From: a virus | Length of the DNA stretch: 64,000 bases | Virus record (IMG/VR): IMGVR_UViG_3300042731_007310 | Location: 20,479 to 84,478 of that record | Strand: one strand, 5' to 3' | In this document: positions 8,218 to 20,545 of the stretch, piece after piece | How the letters are laid out: each line of letters begins with the position of its first letter | Numbering within the stretch: position 1 is the first letter of the stretch | The notes under the pieces: model-generated | What the model was told of the DNA's origin: nothing | Seen by the model: only the letters and a program-made list of their open reading frames with translations | Databases searched by the model: none | Translations under genes and position numbers: made by a program

Positions 8218-9690
8218 ATGTCCCTTGCACTATCCATACCGACTGAAAAACAGATTCGTAAGGCCGATAGGGTCCAATTGGAAACTTACTATCGCGATAC
8301 GTATCAGACTAGGGATGGATGGATTAGAAAACAAGTTTTAGAAAACAACAGGATTGACATACTGGCTATTGAAGTTCTTGGAAAGCAAATAGAACCTTTT
8401 CATTTGTCACTTCTGAAATATCAATTTGCTCATCCAGAAAATTTACAATTGTGTTTCCGTGGCGCTGGTAAATCAACCGTTTGTACTGAAATAAAAACGA
8501 TACACTTACTTCTGAAAAATCCAAACCTAAGAATATTGATTGCTTCTAAAACTATAGCTAATGCTAAAGGATTTTTAAAAAATATAAAATCTCATTTTGA
8601 AACTAACCAAAGGTTAGAAGAGATATTTGGTCAATACTATGATCCACGTCGAGTAGGAAAATGGGATGAAGTAGAAATAGAAGTGTTGCCAAGGACAATA
8701 GTTGCCAAAGAAGCATCAGTTACTTGTGTTGGTGTTGAAGGTACTGTTGTTTCTAAACACTACGATATAATAATATCTGATGATTTGATTGATGAAGAAA
8801 ACAGTAGAAGTAAGCTTCAAAGGGACAAAACACGTACGTGGTTTTACAACACGTTGATGCCAACGTTAGAACCGCCAGATCCGGAAGTGGAACACCGTGG
8901 TGAACATCATATGTTAGGGACTCGCTATCATTATGACGATTTATATGGTCATCTAATAGATAACGAATTGAAGGAACACCACCAAATAATTCCAGCGCTT
9001 GATAATAACGGCCGTAGTCCATGGCCTAAAAAGTTTTCGCCTAAGTGGTTTGCGGAAAAACGTAAGCGTTCCGGACTAATCATCTTCAACTGTCAATATC
9101 AGTGTGACACCGAAGCGATGAAGGGCGAGATCTTCCAATATGATCAGTGTCAACAAATATCTGAAGAAGAATGGCCAGATCACAAGAATCTTCGCGTTTT
9201 TATGGGTGTTGATCTTGCTATTAGCGAAAGTGAATCAGCCGATAAATTCGCTATAGTAGTCATAGGAATAAATAGAGACAGAAGTGCTTACTACGTTCTA
9301 GATTATTATGAAAATCAATTGAGATTCAAAGAACAGACAAAAAAGATACTGGAATACTATCGAAGATGGCGACCTATTAGGTGTGCAATCGAGACAAATC
9401 AATATCAAGCCGCACAATATCAAACCTTGAAGGAAAAGAATCCAGATATTCGACTGAAGAAGGTTCAAACTGACAAAGACAAAATAACGAGAGCTTGGAA
9501 ATTGTCGTCAATTTTTGAAGACAATAGAGTGTTTTTTAGGAAGGGAATACAGGCATTATTGATAGAGCATATGGTTCTATTCCCAAACCATAGGTATAAA
9601 GATCTCTTTGATGCTTTCGATTTATCGGTACAAGCGAGTAAAATGAAACGAAAAAGGCGTAGAAGAGAAACGGAACCGGGAGTAATGTAA
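8218..9690 (+). CDS. terL: Terminase large subunit
   Basis: Walker A-like FRGAGKST, HYDIIISDDLID Walker B, GTRYHYDDLYG motif III, FNCQYQC, nuclease GVDLAIS, IETNQYQ, FPN..YKDLFDA. Confidence 0.93.
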   Translation: MSLALSIPTEKQIRKADRVQLETYYRDTYQTRDGWIRKQVLENNRIDILAIEVLGKQIEPFHLSLLKYQFAHPENLQLCFRGAGKSTVCTEIKTIHLLLKNPNLRILIASKTIANAKGFLKNIKSHFETNQRLEEIFGQYYDPRRVGKWDEVEIEVLPRTIVAKEASVTCVGVEGTVVSKHYDIIISDDLIDEENSRSKLQRDKTRTWFYNTLMPTLEPPDPEVEHRGEHHMLGTRYHYDDLYGHLIDNELKEHHQIIPALDNNGRSPWPKKFSPKWFAEKRKRSGLIIFNCQYQCDTEAMKGEIFQYDQCQQISEEEWPDHKNLRVFMGVDLAISESESADKFAIVVIGINRDRSAYYVLDYYENQLRFKEQTKKILEYYRRWRPIRCAIETNQYQAAQYQTLKEKNPDIRLKKVQTDKDKITRAWKLSSIFEDNRVFFRKGIQALLIEHMVLFPNHRYKDLFDAFDLSVQASKMKRKRRRRETEPGVM

Positions 9691-9691
9691 A

Positions 9692-11542
9692 ATGGACAAA
9701 TCAGAACAACATAAGGCTACTATTTCGTCCAATAAAGCAAACAAGAAAGCGCTTCAGAAGGTTCGCGCTTTAGTAATAGACGTAAGTAAATCTGGTGCGG
9801 CTAATGGTTTGACAAGTAGTAATGCTGAACCTGGTAGATCTGAAGCTTTACCTGAAGAACCGTTTCACGCATTAGGGCATATGGGGAAAATACTTCTTCC
9901 GCCTTTCGATATGCTTACGTTGTCAATGTTGGTTGAGAATAATAGCGAGCTAAATCAGTGTATAGAAGCGATGGAAACCAATATTGACGCAACCGGTCAT
10001 AGGTTCATTTCTAGGCTAAGAATGGATGATATAACACCTACAAGTAATGATTCGGGTGAATCACAAGGAGAGCTTACACCGGAACAAGAAAAACTTATCT
10101 TGAACGCAAAGAAAGAAAAGGTTGGTTTGATCAATTTCTTTACCTATGCGACTTCAGAAAGTTTCGTTTCTTTTCGTAGAAAGTTGAGAAAAGATATTGA
10201 GTCAACAGGAAATTGTTACTTTGAAATAATCCGGAATGACGCTGGACAGATTCAGGGTTTTACTCATTTGCCTAGCTATCAAATGAGAATAGGTAAATTA
10301 GAAGAAGAACCCGTTGAATCTGAAAGGAGTATTCTAGAACTTCAAATAGACGGATCTGTGAAAATAAAAAAGCAAAAAGTAATTCGAAGATTCAGAAACT
10401 ATGTTCAAAGTAGATCTATTCATCAGGGAAGGGCTCAATCATCCATTACTGGTCATAAGGTTGTTTGGTTCAAAGAATTTGGTGATCCAAGATTCTACAG
10501 TAAAAGAGATGGTAAAGAAAGGAAGAGAATACAAAAAGAAGATAGGGCTACTGAAGTAATGCATCTAAAAATTTATAGCCCTAGAAGTGCTTACGGATTA
10601 CCGCGATACATTGGTAATCTACTTTCAATATTTGGTGATCGTGCGGCTGAAGAAATAAATTGGATAACCTTCAAGAACAACAACATACCTAGTATGGTTA
10701 TTGCTGTATCAAATGGGCAATTGACACAAGCAAGCGTAGAAAGAATTCAATCATTTGTTGAGTCTCAAATACAAGGATCTGACAACTATTCAAAGTTTCT
10801 TTTGGTTGAAGCTGAATCGTTGGGTGAAGAAGAAGGTGAAGATGGTGGTCAGGTAAAGATAGATATAAAGCCATTGACAGATAACCAACATAATGACGCA
10901 CTATTTCAAAATTATAGTGAAAATAATCAAGATAAAATTAGGCGTGCTTTTAGACTTCCACCTATTTTCGTTGGAAAAGCAAAGGACTATACGCGCGCTA
11001 CCGCTGAATCTTCAAGACGATTAGCTGATGAACAAATATTCAAACCAGAAAGAGACGAATTCGACGAATGTATAAACAGAATGTTGTTTCCAGAAATGGG
11101 TATAATTTATCATAAGTATAGGAGTAATACGCCAAACACCACGGATAACGCTCAATTAGTGAAGATTCTTGGTGGTGCCGAAAAGACTGGTGGTATAACT
11201 CCGCGAATTGCAAGGTTCATAATCGAAGATATTTTAGGTATAGACCTTCCGGACTTTCCGGATGATTTCCCCGCTGATGTTCCATTCTCTATGACTATGG
11301 CGCAAGCCGTAAAGAACAAGGCCGATCCGACTGAACCCGGTCAACAGGTCACAGCATTGAAGACATTGAAGTCACTTGGAATAATCGACGATGACGGTGA
11401 TTTTGATTTGGCAAGTCTTGAACTTGAGGATCTGGATGAGAGTGATCCTGAAAGTGTAATGGACGTTGCTAAAAAATTGTTGTCATTGAACAGAGCGGCT
11501 GAAATTTTGTGGCGTCAAAAAGTTATGGAAGAAGTTGAATGA
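9692..11542 (+). CDS. Portal protein (PBSX family)
   Basis: Follows TerL; DIESTGNCYFEIIRN, EVMHLKIYSP...YGLPRYIG, FKNNNIPS, AFRLPPIFVG...YTRATAE. Confidence 0.9.
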   Translation: MDKSEQHKATISSNKANKKALQKVRALVIDVSKSGAANGLTSSNAEPGRSEALPEEPFHALGHMGKILLPPFDMLTLSMLVENNSELNQCIEAMETNIDATGHRFISRLRMDDITPTSNDSGESQGELTPEQEKLILNAKKEKVGLINFFTYATSESFVSFRRKLRKDIESTGNCYFEIIRNDAGQIQGFTHLPSYQMRIGKLEEEPVESERSILELQIDGSVKIKKQKVIRRFRNYVQSRSIHQGRAQSSITGHKVVWFKEFGDPRFYSKRDGKERKRIQKEDRATEVMHLKIYSPRSAYGLPRYIGNLLSIFGDRAAEEINWITFKNNNIPSMVIAVSNGQLTQASVERIQSFVESQIQGSDNYSKFLLVEAESLGEEEGEDGGQVKIDIKPLTDNQHNDALFQNYSENNQDKIRRAFRLPPIFVGKAKDYTRATAESSRRLADEQIFKPERDEFDECINRMLFPEMGIIYHKYRSNTPNTTDNAQLVKILGGAEKTGGITPRIARFIIEDILGIDLPDFPDDFPADVPFSMTMAQAVKNKADPTEPGQQVTALKTLKSLGIIDDDGDFDLASLELEDLDESDPESVMDVAKKLLSLNRAAEILWRQKVMEEVE

Positions 11543-12771
11543 AAACGGTCGATTTATACCACGGACTTCATTGTGAATGTTGTTCTAGTCGTATCAATAT
11601 TCTTCATGATGTTTTAGCGTATTCTGATGAAGCCATAGCTAAGGCGTTGATGATAAGCGACGTTGCACATATGGCAAGGATTGAAGTGCGTATGCGCGAA
11701 TACCTTTTGTCAAAATGGAGATTACGCGCAGATCAAGCGGCTAAAAAGGCTGGTGGTGTATACGCGAGTACGGGATCTTTGAAAACGTCTTTCGCGGCTG
11801 TAGACAAAATAATGGATAAATGGGATGAAGAAGTAGCCGTTCGTTTTGGTAAAGATATAGGAGAAATTTACAAGTTAGCTAGAAATGCCGGTTGGAAAAA
11901 AGCAAACGGTCAAACTTCAGCTTCACTACAATATATTGTTCCTAACTTCACCGAAGAACTGGAAGAAAAGGTGAAGAAGGCAAAAAAAATAAAAAGAAGG
12001 GTTGCCGCTGTAAAACCTTCTTTCGACTTGTTTGATGAACAAGCCGTGATGCAACTACAAGACGATCAAATGTTATGGATAGGAGTTCATTACAATAAGA
12101 ATGTAAGAGACACTGTAAGGGAATCGGTAAAACCTAGTGTAGTAGAAGGGGTAAGTAGAACTGAAGCCGGAAGGCGTGTGGCTGAAGCCGTTGGAAAACA
12201 ACTGAGAAAAATAACGGTCCCTGGTGGATTCAACGGATCTGATGCAAAGTATTTTGAAGGTTTAGCCGCTAATACGGCTACCAATAGTCGCGTTCGTGGT
12301 CAATTACGAAGCTTCGTTGATGTAGGGGTTACCAGATATGAAATAATGAATCCAATGGATAACAGAACTTCACCCATTTGTGCTTATATGAATGGAAAGG
12401 TTTTTACTATTAGAGAAGGGGCCTCACTAATCGCTAAAGTTTCTGGTGCTACTAATCCAGATCAGGTAAAAGAAGCTCACCCATGGGTATCAACAACGGA
12501 AGCAAAAAGAATAGGTAGTGGTGGTGAAAGAGCCCTTGCTAAAGCTGGTTTATCACTTCCACCATATCATTTTCGTTGTAGAAGCACGGTAGACATATCT
12601 ACTGAATCTGTTTCATTTGGTTCGTTATCGAAAGCCGAAATGATAGACGTTCCTAGTCGTAAACAACCGACTAGACAAAATACTCCAAAGAATAGAAAGC
12701 CTACTTCAAAACCAAAGCAATCCAAACCTACCAAACGTCCTGCAACACTTCCGGAAATTGGTAAAGTTTGA
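11539..12771 (+). CDS. Minor head morphogenesis protein (MuF / SPP1 gp7-like)
   Basis: DNRTSPICAYMNGKVF and LPPYHFRCRST MuF signature; lies after the portal gene. Confidence 0.88.
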   Translation: MKTVDLYHGLHCECCSSRINILHDVLAYSDEAIAKALMISDVAHMARIEVRMREYLLSKWRLRADQAAKKAGGVYASTGSLKTSFAAVDKIMDKWDEEVAVRFGKDIGEIYKLARNAGWKKANGQTSASLQYIVPNFTEELEEKVKKAKKIKRRVAAVKPSFDLFDEQAVMQLQDDQMLWIGVHYNKNVRDTVRESVKPSVVEGVSRTEAGRRVAEAVGKQLRKITVPGGFNGSDAKYFEGLAANTATNSRVRGQLRSFVDVGVTRYEIMNPMDNRTSPICAYMNGKVFTIREGASLIAKVSGATNPDQVKEAHPWVSTTEAKRIGSGGERALAKAGLSLPPYHFRCRSTVDISTESVSFGSLSKAEMIDVPSRKQPTRQNTPKNRKPTSKPKQSKPTKRPATLPEIGKV

Positions 12772-12803
12772 AGGTCTAGCGGATATCACGCTATCATAAA
12801 AAT
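12768..12803 (+). promoter_or_regulatory. Putative sigma70-type promoter giving a leaderless transcript of the protease gene
   Basis: TTGAAG (12768-73), N18, TATCAT (12792-97), then 6 nt to ATG 12804 with no Shine-Dalgarno. Confidence 0.4.
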
Positions 12804-13343
12804 ATGAACGATATTGCGCGCCACATTGAAGGCATAGCTGAATGTGTCAGAAAAACAACCGTTCCAGCGCTTAGAGAAGAAGCGCGAAAAGAAATGGTTG
12901 TTGATACAGAAAAAGATACGTCTACAGAAAATTCACCAGATGAACAGAAGTCCGTAAAAAAGCAGATAGAAGTTTCGATCGCTAAAGCAGACGAAGAACA
13001 ACAGACGGTTACTGGTATTGTACTTCAGCCTGAAGTGGTGGATGGTCAAGGCGATATCATGTCTGAAGAAGTTATTAGAGATAGCGCTTATGCTTTTCTG
13101 ATGAACTTCAATAAGGCAACCAAATTAGGCATTCAGCACAATAAATTCCCTGTTGGAAAACTTGCGTTGGTTGAAAGTTGGCTTTCTCCTATGGAAATGG
13201 CAATAGGTACTAAGACGGTCAAACAGGGTTCTTGGATTATGACCGTAAAAATACTGGACAAAAAACTTTGGGAGAAAGTAAAGAAGGGTGAAATAACCGG
13301 CTTTAGTATTGGTGGTAAGGCCAAGGTTGTTGCATCAACATAG
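12804..13343 (+). CDS. xkdF: XkdF-like prohead (serine) protease domain
   Basis: KADEEQQTVTGIVLQPEVVDGQGD, IQH, LVESWLSP, KQGSWIMTVKI...LWEKVKKGEITGFSIGG. Confidence 0.88.
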   Translation: MNDIARHIEGIAECVRKTTVPALREEARKEMVVDTEKDTSTENSPDEQKSVKKQIEVSIAKADEEQQTVTGIVLQPEVVDGQGDIMSEEVIRDSAYAFLMNFNKATKLGIQHNKFPVGKLALVESWLSPMEMAIGTKTVKQGSWIMTVKILDKKLWEKVKKGEITGFSIGGKAKVVAST

Positions 13344-13359
13344 CAAGGAAACCAAAATC

Positions 13360-14319
13360 ATGCCTAAGAAACCTACGAGAAGATTTCTAAAATTAGATAC
13401 CAATGAGGTATCGTTAGTTGATGTTCCAGCAAACGAAGTTCCGTTTCTGGTTACTAAAAATCAAGATCAAATGGAGAATGATAACATGAGTGCACAAGCC
13501 GGAAATCAAAACATCGACGGTGAAAGTGTTCAAGTGCAAGTTGACGGTTCCGAAAGTTCCGTTCAAAAGGCAATAGAACATGTTAATTCTATCGTCGAAA
13601 ATATCACGAAAGTTGTCACCGTAAAAAACCAGGGAGCGGAAGGAAACGAACAAGATAACGCTCAATCGGCCGATTCCGGTGATACCACAGATGTTAGCAA
13701 GGCTACGATCAAGTCCGTACTTTCTGCTTTAGGAATGAGCGGAGATGATATGAAAAAGGCTTGCGACAAATTGAAGGCGGCTGGATTCAATCCAAATCAG
13801 CAATTCCCTTCAGCACAACCACCTGTCAAAAAGGATGCAAAGGGTGAAGGTTCTGAAGGTGAAACGGAAACACAAAAGTCTGATACCGATTCTGTCGTAC
13901 AGGATCAACCGCTTACCATGCAATCGCTAGCTGAAGCTGTTCAAAAAGCAGCGGCTTTTACGCCTAGCAGAATAGAACAACTGAAGAATGCTCAGGAAAT
14001 CTTGAAGCTTGTTCTTGAAGCGGTTGCTCCCAATACATCACCCAAAACAAAAGTTCCGGGTGTTGAGAGTCATAGCAATCCGAGTGCCGTAAGCGATCTT
14101 TCTCAACCGACCAAGAAGCCGGTTATGAAGAATGCTGATGATAACGGAGAATTTGTTACAGCACTCAAAGCGCTAGCTGATGGCGTAAAGACCCTAACGG
14201 AACGTGTCGAGAATATCGAAAAGACTCGTAACGCTAGCAATAGCGTAGAAGATGACGGTGACACTGACACCAATACGGATACACAAAAGAGTAAAGGCCT
14301 TTGGAACGGACTTCTGTAG
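13360..14319 (+). CDS. Capsid scaffolding protein carrying the 'EVSLVDxPAN' protease strand at its N-terminus
   Basis: Between protease and MCP; RBS AAGGA before ATG 13360; low-complexity body, C-terminal coiled coil (LKALADGVKTLTERVENIEKTR) and tail KSKGLWNGLL. Confidence 0.8.
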   Translation: MPKKPTRRFLKLDTNEVSLVDVPANEVPFLVTKNQDQMENDNMSAQAGNQNIDGESVQVQVDGSESSVQKAIEHVNSIVENITKVVTVKNQGAEGNEQDNAQSADSGDTTDVSKATIKSVLSALGMSGDDMKKACDKLKAAGFNPNQQFPSAQPPVKKDAKGEGSEGETETQKSDTDSVVQDQPLTMQSLAEAVQKAAAFTPSRIEQLKNAQEILKLVLEAVAPNTSPKTKVPGVESHSNPSAVSDLSQPTKKPVMKNADDNGEFVTALKALADGVKTLTERVENIEKTRNASNSVEDDGDTDTNTDTQKSKGLWNGLL

Positions 14320-14371
14320 AGAATAACGGTCACAAGGCGCAAACAAAAGAAACTTTCAAGGAGAAACAGAA

Positions 14372-15574
14372 ATGACTATTTCAAATGAGGACATTGTCAG
14401 CAAGGCGGCAATCACCGCTGATGCAATAGCGGCAAGCGGAAAGTTGAACAATGCGCAATCAGATCGTTTCATCGATTTTGTTATTGATGAGACCGTTCTA
14501 AAGGACAACGCGCGTATCGTTCGGTTCCGAAACGAAAATCTAGAAATCGATAAAATCGGTGTTGGCCGACGTGTGGCCGTACCGAAGTCTGAAGCGGTTG
14601 ACCCACAGGTTAGACGCGGAATCACGACTTCAAAAGTTACTTTGACTCCGCACGAATTATGCGTTCCGTTCGAGATCGGTGATAGCTTCAGAGAGCTGAA
14701 TATCGAAGGTGATAGCATCGAAGAAACAATTATCCGATTGATGGCTACGCAACTTGCAAACGATCTGGAAGATCTATACATCAATGGTAACGAACTAGGT
14801 CCAGCGGTTCCACAATCCGATATTTTGGAAAATGGAAGTTCAGACGAAGTCAAAGATGCATACTTGGCACTCTGTGACGGTTGGTCTATTCTCGCTGATG
14901 GTTCGAACATCGTTGACGCGCAAGGCCAAAATATCGGTCTATCGATTTTCAGCAAAGCAATCCGAGCCATGCCGACCAAATTTAGACGGAATCGATCGGC
15001 TCTACGGTGGTTTATCAGTCCGGACCTTTGGCAGCTATACCTAGAGAAGTTGTCAACGCGCGCTACCGCGTTGGGTGATGACGCTGCTAGGGGTGGTGGT
15101 GGAATGCCTGGACCTTTCGGAATTACCGCTGTTCCAGTTCCGTTGTGGGAGTTTGAACCGCTTACGGTTGAACATGTGACCTTGACCGGAACAACCGCTG
15201 TAGCTCTAGCTAACGCCCCTGTAGTTGACGTTGTAGTTCATCCGGAAACGTTGGATAAGGTTCCTACCGTTGCTTATGTTGAAGGCGCTGGTAATGACTA
15301 TATCCTTGACGCAACCAACGGAACGATAGCTCGTGACGGTGCTAGTACAATTGGTAGTGGCGATACGGTCAAAGTAACCTACCGTTCGAATCCACAGATT
15401 CTATTGACCCATATGAATAACATGATCATTGGTATCGGACGTGATATCAGAATCGAAAAGGATCGTGATATCTATAAGGGCGTGAATCAGTATGCGATTA
15501 CCGCGAAAGTTGACGTAGAATATGAGGAACTTACGGCAATCGTGAAGGTTAGAAACATCGGAAAGGGTGTATAA
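14372..15574 (+). CDS. Major capsid protein (HK97 fold, XkdG/P2-like) with an inserted beta domain
   Basis: RBS AAGGAG; GKLNNAQSDRFID, NIEG, ANDLEDLYINGN, MPTKFRRN, NMIIGIGRDIRIEKDRD. Confidence 0.92.
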   Translation: MTISNEDIVSKAAITADAIAASGKLNNAQSDRFIDFVIDETVLKDNARIVRFRNENLEIDKIGVGRRVAVPKSEAVDPQVRRGITTSKVTLTPHELCVPFEIGDSFRELNIEGDSIEETIIRLMATQLANDLEDLYINGNELGPAVPQSDILENGSSDEVKDAYLALCDGWSILADGSNIVDAQGQNIGLSIFSKAIRAMPTKFRRNRSALRWFISPDLWQLYLEKLSTRATALGDDAARGGGGMPGPFGITAVPVPLWEFEPLTVEHVTLTGTTAVALANAPVVDVVVHPETLDKVPTVAYVEGAGNDYILDATNGTIARDGASTIGSGDTVKVTYRSNPQILLTHMNNMIIGIGRDIRIEKDRDIYKGVNQYAITAKVDVEYEELTAIVKVRNIGKGV

Positions 15575-20200: not shown

Positions 20201-20545
20201 ATGGGTATTACGGATAAACCGCAAATTGTTGATTCAGTCTTGGCCACAATTGAGACTGAACCAACAGATCCAATTTTTCCTTGTCCTGAATGCGGTTCAG
20301 AAACTAAACCCTATGGTGAAGCCGAAAGAGAAAATAGCGGTCAACGAATTTGTTCTTCAACGGTATGTAGAAAAGTTCAACCCAAAATAAAAGAAACGTT
20401 GAAGCAAATAAACGGTAGGATCGTGAGGTTTCCGTGTAGGGATTGTGGTTGCGAAACTAAAGTCTATAAGGACGGAAAAGTAGACGTAGTAAAATCAAGG
20501 ATTTGTTCTAACAAGTCCTGTAAACACATTATTGAAGCGACATAG
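20201..20545 (+). CDS. Double zinc-ribbon protein
   Basis: Internal duplication FPCPECGSETKPY...RICSSTVC / FPCRDCGCETKVY...RICSNKSC. Confidence 0.7.
   Translation: MGITDKPQIVDSVLATIETEPTDPIFPCPECGSETKPYGEAERENSGQRICSSTVCRKVQPKIKETLKQINGRIVRFPCRDCGCETKVYKDGKVDVVKSRICSNKSCKHIIEAT

Follow-up and report, generated by a model that had tools for sequence, protein, structure and literature searches.

In a 64,000-nucleotide (nt) stretch of the IMG/VR virus record IMGVR_UViG_3300042731_007310 (positions 20,479 to 84,478 of the record, hereafter the window), the prohead protease gene (12804-13343) stops just behind the motif with its presumed catalytic serine, and the strand module that single-chain relatives carry in the same protein as the protease opens the next gene, which encodes the scaffold (13360-14319). 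This split layout was confirmed in the sequence and is conserved in related loci, where the module is present in a single copy per head module. We propose a gene fission, after which the N-terminal module of the scaffold hooks the protease to the scaffold by strand complementation and so tethers it, a reading that we regard as fairly probable. The parts concerned are, in window coordinates:

12804-13343, plus strand: prohead protease gene, 179 amino acids (aa), matching PF14550 and positions 32-156 of 402 of phrog_3017
12975-13331, plus strand: XkdF (Peptidase_S78_2) domain, residues 58-176, from the Pfam profile match; modelled core at a predicted local distance difference test score (pLDDT) of 80-96
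13137-13139, plus strand: codon of His112, presumed catalytic histidine (invariant column; role assigned from the family)
13305-13307, plus strand: codon of Ser168 in GFSIGG, presumed nucleophile (invariant column; role assigned from the family)
13344-13359, plus strand: 16-nt spacer with the ribosome-binding site AAGGAA at 13345-13350, read from the sequence
13360-14319, plus strand: scaffold gene, long form, 319 aa, with strand module, body and C-terminal W-x-G tail; the C-terminal part corresponds to phrog_3017
13369-13467, plus strand: strand module (hook), scaffold residues 4-36, from invariant columns, a profile-profile match and a single-chain model
13473-13488, plus strand: candidate internal start, GGAG at 13473-13476, 9 nt, ATG at 13486 (Met43), from conservation
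14296-14316, plus strand: scaffold C-terminal tail GLWNGLL, with W315 and G317 nearly invariant; presumed to bind the capsid interior

A prohead protease divided over two genes

The protease open reading frame (ORF) ends in GEITGFSIGGKAKVVAST, followed by the stop codon TAG (13341-13343), which leaves 8 residues between GFSIGG and the end of the protein. It consists of an N-terminal helix region (residues 1-45) and an XkdF-type domain, and has neither the strand module nor a scaffold part. The domain matches Pfam family PF14550 (Peptidase_S78_2) with 113.4 bits (cut-off 24, E 8.7e-33) over profile positions 4-125 of 126, and both His112 and Ser168 (the serine of G-x-S-x-G-G) are invariant columns in an alignment of 112 protease sequences (A2). 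Neither of the two ORFs matches PF04586 (Peptidase_S78) at E up to 1. The window also lacks the classical XkdF fusion with the architecture of PHROG 3017, as the protease covers only positions 32-156, and the scaffold ORF only positions 298-401, of the 402 in that family. The helix in residues 1-45 (12804-12940, modelled pLDDT 71-81) has the pattern M..I..H...IA.C/L..K, which is conserved in close relatives; distant relatives have an L..GGKL.PA motif or an N-terminal RRAIPA motif in its place.

The 319-aa scaffold ORF starts with ATG at 13360, in the +1 frame relative to the protease ORF. This frame is open from stop to stop from 13297, giving an overlap of 47 nt with the end of the protease gene, and the TTG at 13309 is the first codon in it that could serve as a start. 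A first-pass annotation, made from the sequence alone, had described a protease ending just past GFSIGG, a missing strand that opens the next ORF in another frame behind its own ribosome site, and a downstream frame open from 13309, and all three descriptions agree with our analysis.

The strand module on the scaffold

The first 35 residues of the scaffold contain the pattern RRF..L...EVSLVD.PAN..F.V.K, and eight of the nine invariant columns in an alignment of 48 scaffold sequences (A3) fall within the first 33 residues; Glu16 of the module is invariant. The pattern is taken to be beyond chance because the protease matches PF14550 and these eight columns sit in the module. When the alignment of scaffolds was compared with that of single-chain relatives, the module was the one region of agreement between the two profiles (33 columns, E 4.5e-5, probability 69%). 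A hidden Markov model (HMM) trained only on the N-termini of eight single-chain forms recognises the beginning of the scaffold ORF in many split loci with E under 0.01, and in the window at the correct position with E 0.018 only. A Pfam search with the first 47 scaffold residues alone returned no family at E up to 10, and a tblastn search with the scaffold gave no match in phage records. The profile-profile and HMM comparisons thus identify the scaffold module with that of the single-chain relatives. At the other end of the protein, A3 shows a nearly invariant tail, S-x-W-x-G-[VIL]-L (W315 and G317), and similar tails are present on single-chain XkdF fusions.

Distribution of the module in related loci and proteins

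A protease match was found in 117 loci, a number that includes duplicates (the window and L036 are one such pair, L004 and L037 another, and many further contigs are near-identical). Exactly one copy of the module was detected in 107 loci, none in 10 and two in none, and among the 107 it lies in the downstream ORF in 84, before the protease domain in 22 and after it in one. Of the ten loci lacking a module, L068 and L083 have almost no downstream DNA, L015, L018 and L034 are truncated or partial, L011, L012 and L017 have a divergent but recognisable module in the next ORF and L029 has a weak look-alike, which leaves L095 as a true blank. The split is thus conserved in homologous loci, as the first-pass annotation had proposed to check, with 57 distinct related loci showing it. 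In L008 and L013 the module-bearing scaffold gene is not adjacent to the protease gene, but lies 1-2 ORFs (0.8-1.8 kb) downstream.

The proteins give the same picture from both sides of the junction. Among the 120 listed of 157 protease homologues of near-equal length, all stop 7-19 residues past GFSIGG and lack the module, and 48 of 56 scaffold homologues begin with it, with two gene calls starting within the module and six at an internal Met. No protease-scaffold fusion was present among these 56 homologues, in a search that included proteins of up to 559 aa. Longer protease homologues carry the domain at their extreme C-terminus in 33/36 cases, behind LigT-like, methylase and other domains. 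An exhaustive search yielded 4186 representative proteins at E 1e-3 or better, 136 of which were inspected; the domain is at the extreme C-terminus in 124, ending a median of 7 residues after the motif, and 86 of these 124 exceed 300 aa, the longest being 2016 aa. The domains accompanying the C-terminal XkdF domain in the P0177-P0348 proteins include LigT-like (PF13563, PF02834) and D12 methylase (PF02086) domains, besides others.

Three architectures can be distinguished. In the first, module, protease and scaffold follow one another in this order from the N-terminus of a single chain, which is 349-411 aa long in the annotated proteins of Bacillus phage B83 (named xkdF-like), Dulem virus 37 and Enterococcus phage EG-TP1, and the same module-first order was found in 22 fetched loci. 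These three annotated phage proteins bear out the earlier statement that XkdF-like proteins carry the module at the N-terminus of one chain. L016 (1739-3643) and L019 (3284-4270) have some 130-400 further residues between the N-terminal module and the protease domain, so that the module can sit far from the domain along the chain. In the second architecture, also a single chain, the module comes 17-40 residues after GFSIGG (P0196, P0212, P0321, P0343, P0293 and locus L108). The 592-aa P0293 has two XkdF-like domains, the first with a divergent module in cis (VSTVPSGAN) and the second at the extreme C-terminus without a module. The order in P0202 and P0297 would also fit, but their Arg/Pro-rich tails look out of frame, and they were not counted as clean natural fusions. 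In the third architecture, that of the window, the protein terminates with the domain and the module is found at the start of a downstream ORF of scaffold size; from the sequences compared, this is the rule in this clade. For HK97-type proteases, where the first-pass annotation had placed the strand after GFSIG in the same chain, the support is indirect: P0212 is colinear with PF04586 across GFSIGG and the module (residues 96-151 against profile positions 92-156 of 165), in a match that stays below the cut-off (E 0.0024, 18.5 bits, cut-off 21).

Separate translation of the two genes

The split could be bypassed by a programmed +1 ribosomal frameshift or by read-through, fusing protease and scaffold as in the single-chain relatives. 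Such a fusion would be helped by the frame that is open from 13297 with its 47-nt overlap, the same +1 relation occurs in L004, and natural fused forms exist (P0196, P0321, P0343 and L108). Against this, the frame offset of the downstream ORF varies among the 57 distinct split loci (+2 in 25, +1 in 22 and 0 in 10), and each of the three stop codons occurs among them. In contigs X3 and X5, which differ from the window by 33-34 substitutions in 501 bases (approximately 93% identity), the stop codon is kept and the spacer is 17 nt long, one extra base that shifts the offset. L004, whose protease is 83% identical to that of the window, has the same two ORFs with different junction bases and a 13-nt spacer with AGGA, and its downstream frame is closed by a TAG 17 nt before the protease stop. 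No slippery word was visible at the junction, and the scaffold has its own ribosome site and ATG, with 40 of the 48 homologues with a complete N-terminus beginning with Met-Pro or Val-Pro. We therefore reject the frameshift fusion that had been named as the alternative to a split, and consider any such fusion highly improbable in the window. In the loci with both ORFs in the same frame (10/57 distinct, for instance L047, L057, L061 and L069), a stop codon and a short in-frame spacer separate the two, and read-through could fuse them; this does not apply to the window, because its offset is +1.

The source record is a metagenome assembly of an uncultivated virus (84,478 bases, linear, 82% complete), and a sequencing or assembly indel, or a gene broken in this record only, would give a similar picture. 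A sequence identical to the window is present in a wetland metagenome run (X1), with contigs that break between 13326 and 13445 and hence do not confirm the junction. The same split is found in independent assemblies at 93%, 83% and 30-60% identity, which makes the chance of an artifact next to negligible. The sources of X3 and X5 are mangrove and marine-sediment metagenomes, and one of the two contigs is 33 kb long.

No promoter-like or terminator-like site was detected at the split: a scan of 12600-14500 yielded a single promoter-like site, upstream of the protease gene (12768-12797), and a single terminator-like site, on the minus strand, fewer of each than in shuffled sequence. From the varying offsets, the extra spacer base, the L004 junction and the lack of such a site at the split, we conclude that the two genes are translated separately, probably from one transcript.

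Structural models of the protease and the module

Modelled alone with AlphaFold, the window's protease has a mean pLDDT of 77.3 and a predicted template modelling score (pTM) of 0.62, with core strands at 80-96 and the catalytic His loop (residues 106-113) under 50. The natural single-chain protein P0321, modelled as the whole 410-aa chain, has a lower overall score (mean pLDDT 68.0, pTM 0.46), with its protease domain at 86-97, the His loop at 86-96 and the strands of the module, at residues 248-262, at 81-95. The alignment for the P0321 model (A6) was made without scaffold rows, and replaced an earlier one (A5) in which the scaffold rows fell over the protease domain. Modelling of the protease alone had been suggested in the first-pass annotation as a check on whether the fold is complete; in that model most of the core folds, with the His loop poorly modelled and the strands of the module absent.

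Structural comparison placed the window's protease in the assemblin-like fold, the best match being T4 gp21 (5jbl_A; Z 7.4, root-mean-square deviation (rmsd) 4.5, 117 aligned residues, gp21 chain 2-151) and the next one having Z 4.0. The P0321 model matched the same structure better (Z 10.8, rmsd 3.0, 124 aligned residues), with residues 116-264 aligned to gp21 26-172 and the alignment running through the module. Among herpesvirus proteases, the window's protease matched 1vzv_A with Z 3.2 (rank 41), and P0321 matched 1vzv_A with Z 6.1 and 8j3s_A with Z 5.0. The strands that follow the Ser strand in the same chain were not found in the window's protease, as its alignment stops at gp21 residue 151 where that of P0321 continues to 172. 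Since the gp21 alignment of P0321 runs through the module and that of the window's protease does not, the models provide good but indirect evidence that the module corresponds to the strands following the Ser strand in solved relatives, and that these are absent from the window's protease chain. A Foldseek search of the PDB with the protease model gave no match at E 1e-3 or better, with gp21 only at rank 7, and a profile search of the sequences of solved structures with the protease gave nothing relevant (best E 0.52, VPS9-like).

The N-terminal 45 residues of the protease might themselves stand in for the missing module. MAFFT set residues 14-38 opposite the single-chain module, with a weak likeness, and the helix at residues 4-16 is modelled at pLDDT 71-81. 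The segment is modelled as helix and not as strands, is not conserved in the family, many relatives starting directly at the domain, and is matched by neither motif HMM, which renders this substitution very unlikely.

A candidate internal start in the scaffold gene

Behind the module, the scaffold gene of the window contains a GGAG (13473-13476) followed after 9 nt by the ATG of Met43 (13486), from which a 277-aa scaffold without the hook would be translated. An ATG within 25 residues after the module is present in 52 of 54 distinct related scaffolds, and each of these 52 has a Shine-Dalgarno-like sequence, mostly GGAGG, 5-16 nt ahead of it; for Met codons at other positions in these genes, the density is 0.53 per 25 residues and the share with a sequence of this kind only 29%. 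Six public gene calls begin at Met43, a nearly invariant position in A3. The window thus has a conserved in-frame internal start with a ribosome site, as expected of a nested scaffold gene. This arrangement points to two forms of the scaffold, a long one with the hook and a short one lacking it. The first-pass annotation had missed the internal start, which turns the reading of the locus into one of a hooked minor form and an unhooked bulk form of the scaffold.

Possible association in trans and a proposed tethering mechanism

Complexes of the protease with scaffold residues 1-50, modelled with ESMFold2, reached interaction scores (ipSAE, interaction prediction score from aligned errors) of 0.58, 0.51 and 0.46 (median 0.51), against 0.00 for the best of three controls, with the partner at pLDDT 48-52; the mark used for this score is reached by 58/80 solved complexes and 2/110 mismatched pairs, and scores of 0.60 or under comprise only 7/80 solved complexes but both of the mismatches that pass. 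The runs agreed in at least 80% of their contacts. We take these models, rated as weak support by the scoring, as no more than a hint that the module docks on the protease in trans. The earlier proposal that the scaffold supplies a piece of the fold in trans is partly supported, in that the module is conserved on the scaffold, is the element that single-chain forms carry and belongs to the fold in the model of such a form; the one direct test of its binding was the predicted complex, a weak pass (0.51 against 0.00).

The arrangement suggests the following mechanism. By natural fission, the protease gene would have kept the catalytic core (His112 and Ser168), with the missing module now forming the first approximately 35 residues of the scaffold, encoded 16 nt downstream. 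The long form of the scaffold would insert this module into the protease as a non-covalent hook, by strand complementation, and the hooked protease would thereby sit at the scaffold N-terminus, the position in which it is held covalently in XkdF-type fusions. The C-terminal W-x-G tail of the scaffold would carry the pair into the assembling prohead. As the internal start at Met43 would make a hook-less bulk scaffold, only a fraction of the scaffold molecules would be able to carry protease. The residues around the catalytic His probably become ordered, too, once the module is inserted, and large polyvalent proteins with this domain at their C-terminus would be loaded by way of that hook as well.

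Two stronger versions can be formulated. That the hook is also needed for catalysis, giving strict activation, we consider rather unlikely. We are similarly doubtful that this is a true split enzyme, in which the His112 region is unformed without the module and proteolysis is switched on only where hooked scaffold is present, with the hook as a general loader for hundreds of polyvalent cargo proteins that are then cut free. Activation only within the prohead, as the first-pass annotation had it, is not supported, because both proteins are made together and meet in the cytoplasm.

The tethering mechanism has to be weighed against a protease that is complete and active alone. The conserved N-terminus of the scaffold would then be a separate element, which could serve as a site for recognition or cleavage, touch the portal or coat, or lie in the substrate groove as an inhibitory pro-peptide. 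Several points count against tethering, and of these the confident core, the PF14550 boundary and the site at the end of the module also count for the rival. A confident core (mean pLDDT 77, pTM 0.62) is predicted for the protease on its own, and hence the module may not be essential for folding; the difference in the His loop is only suggestive, because the two models are of different proteins and were made from different alignments; and DSSP strands and pLDDT, from which the models were judged without coordinates or contacts, do not identify pairing strands. The boundary of PF14550 ends before the module and leaves it outside the domain. As a hairpin, the strands of the module could instead bind in the manner of a substrate or of an inhibitory peptide, and the module ends in a site resembling V-T-K/N (the stroke marking the putative cleavage). 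Finally, the loci are not independent samples, with many near-duplicates, and the 57 distinct loci were used where it matters. On the other side, the module occurs exactly once per head module, and in single-chain forms it accompanies the protease, which it precedes in 22 loci and follows in one locus and 7 proteins. It also lies within the alignment of P0321 to T4 gp21 and herpesvirus proteases, where its inclusion raises Z from 7.4 to 10.8. With these observations, we judge a protease that is complete on its own to be unlikely, and prefer tethering by the scaffold-borne module.

Surrounding head genes

The split genes lie within a head gene module, with the following neighbours:

8218-9690: large terminase, assigned from its position upstream of the portal gene and not by a family search
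9692-11542: portal, PF04860
11539-12771: MuF-like protein, with a weak PF04233 match (20.6 bits, cut-off 29.6) and minor-head PHROGs
14372-15574, plus strand: major capsid protein gene, phrog_1623, E 1.2e-72

Implications of a scaffold-borne module

Prohead proteases must enter the procapsid and be kept harmless outside it. One known solution is covalent fusion to a form of the scaffold, as in herpesviruses and lambda, and another is a C-terminal targeting peptide, as in HK97. Covalent protease-scaffold fusion is also seen in the XkdF fusions of this analysis. A large clade appears to use a third solution, in which the scaffold gene encodes part of the enzyme's own fold. If so, enzyme and scaffold would join by strand complementation, with the internal start setting the number of hooked scaffold molecules, and the parts of about 35 and 130 residues would be a split-protein pair of natural origin. 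It would also explain why the domain always ends polyvalent proteins, and would correct the annotation of these genes, because what is called scaffold begins with part of the protease. Both the protease family and its fold are already known; the module on the scaffold gene and the nested start behind it are what we did not find in print. A literature search, which did not cover supplements, found no published description of a prohead protease completed by its own scaffold, nor of a nested start behind such a module. An inert free enzyme, if the protease is one, could in addition evade host defences that sense prohead protease activity. Such sensing is described for defences like CBASS (cyclic oligonucleotide-based antiphage signalling system; PMC12991175).

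Relation to known protease and scaffold systems

Iyer et al. (2017, PMC5512222) described phage polyvalent proteins that have an assemblin-like peptidase domain at the C-terminus. The likeness to the proteins analysed here is the C-terminal position of the domain, with 86/124 of our C-terminal-domain representatives being longer than 300 aa and the longest 2016 aa; the passages of that study that were consulted make no mention of a missing strand or of a scaffold-borne module, and the window's protease differs in being a short stand-alone protein.

The closest relatives are the XkdF-type fusions (PF14550; PHROG 3017; for example vB_BtS_B83 gp09, the Dulem virus 37 XkdF-like protein and EG-TP1 gp54), which have the same catalytic domain at 33-35% identity. 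Their strand module, their scaffold part with a tail of the W/Y-x-G type and their gene position between the MuF-like and major capsid genes are shared as well. They differ in being one chain in the order module-protease-scaffold, whereas the window has two genes, with the protease first and then module and scaffold. With these gene orders, the window has its module on a separate chain and, relative to the domain, on the opposite side. HK97-type proteases (PF04586) have the same order in the DNA, with the Ser strand followed about 25-40 residues later by an E-V-S-L-V..P-A-type module, whereas in the window the two are separated by the TAG stop, the ribosome site AAGGAA and the ATG of the scaffold. 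T4 gp21 and herpesvirus assemblin (PDB 5jbl; 1vzv from varicella-zoster virus; 8j3s from human cytomegalovirus) share the fold of the window's protease, but have only 12-13% sequence identity and carry the equivalent strands in their own chain.

The lambda C/Nu3 and herpesvirus UL26/UL26.5 pairs produce a minority form of the scaffold with an N-terminal protease, and from an internal in-frame start an abundant scaffold without protease. The scaffold gene of the window likewise has a candidate internal in-frame start. In those pairs the protease is covalently fused to the long form, whereas in the window the long form would bear a hook of approximately 35 residues, with the protease as a separate protein.

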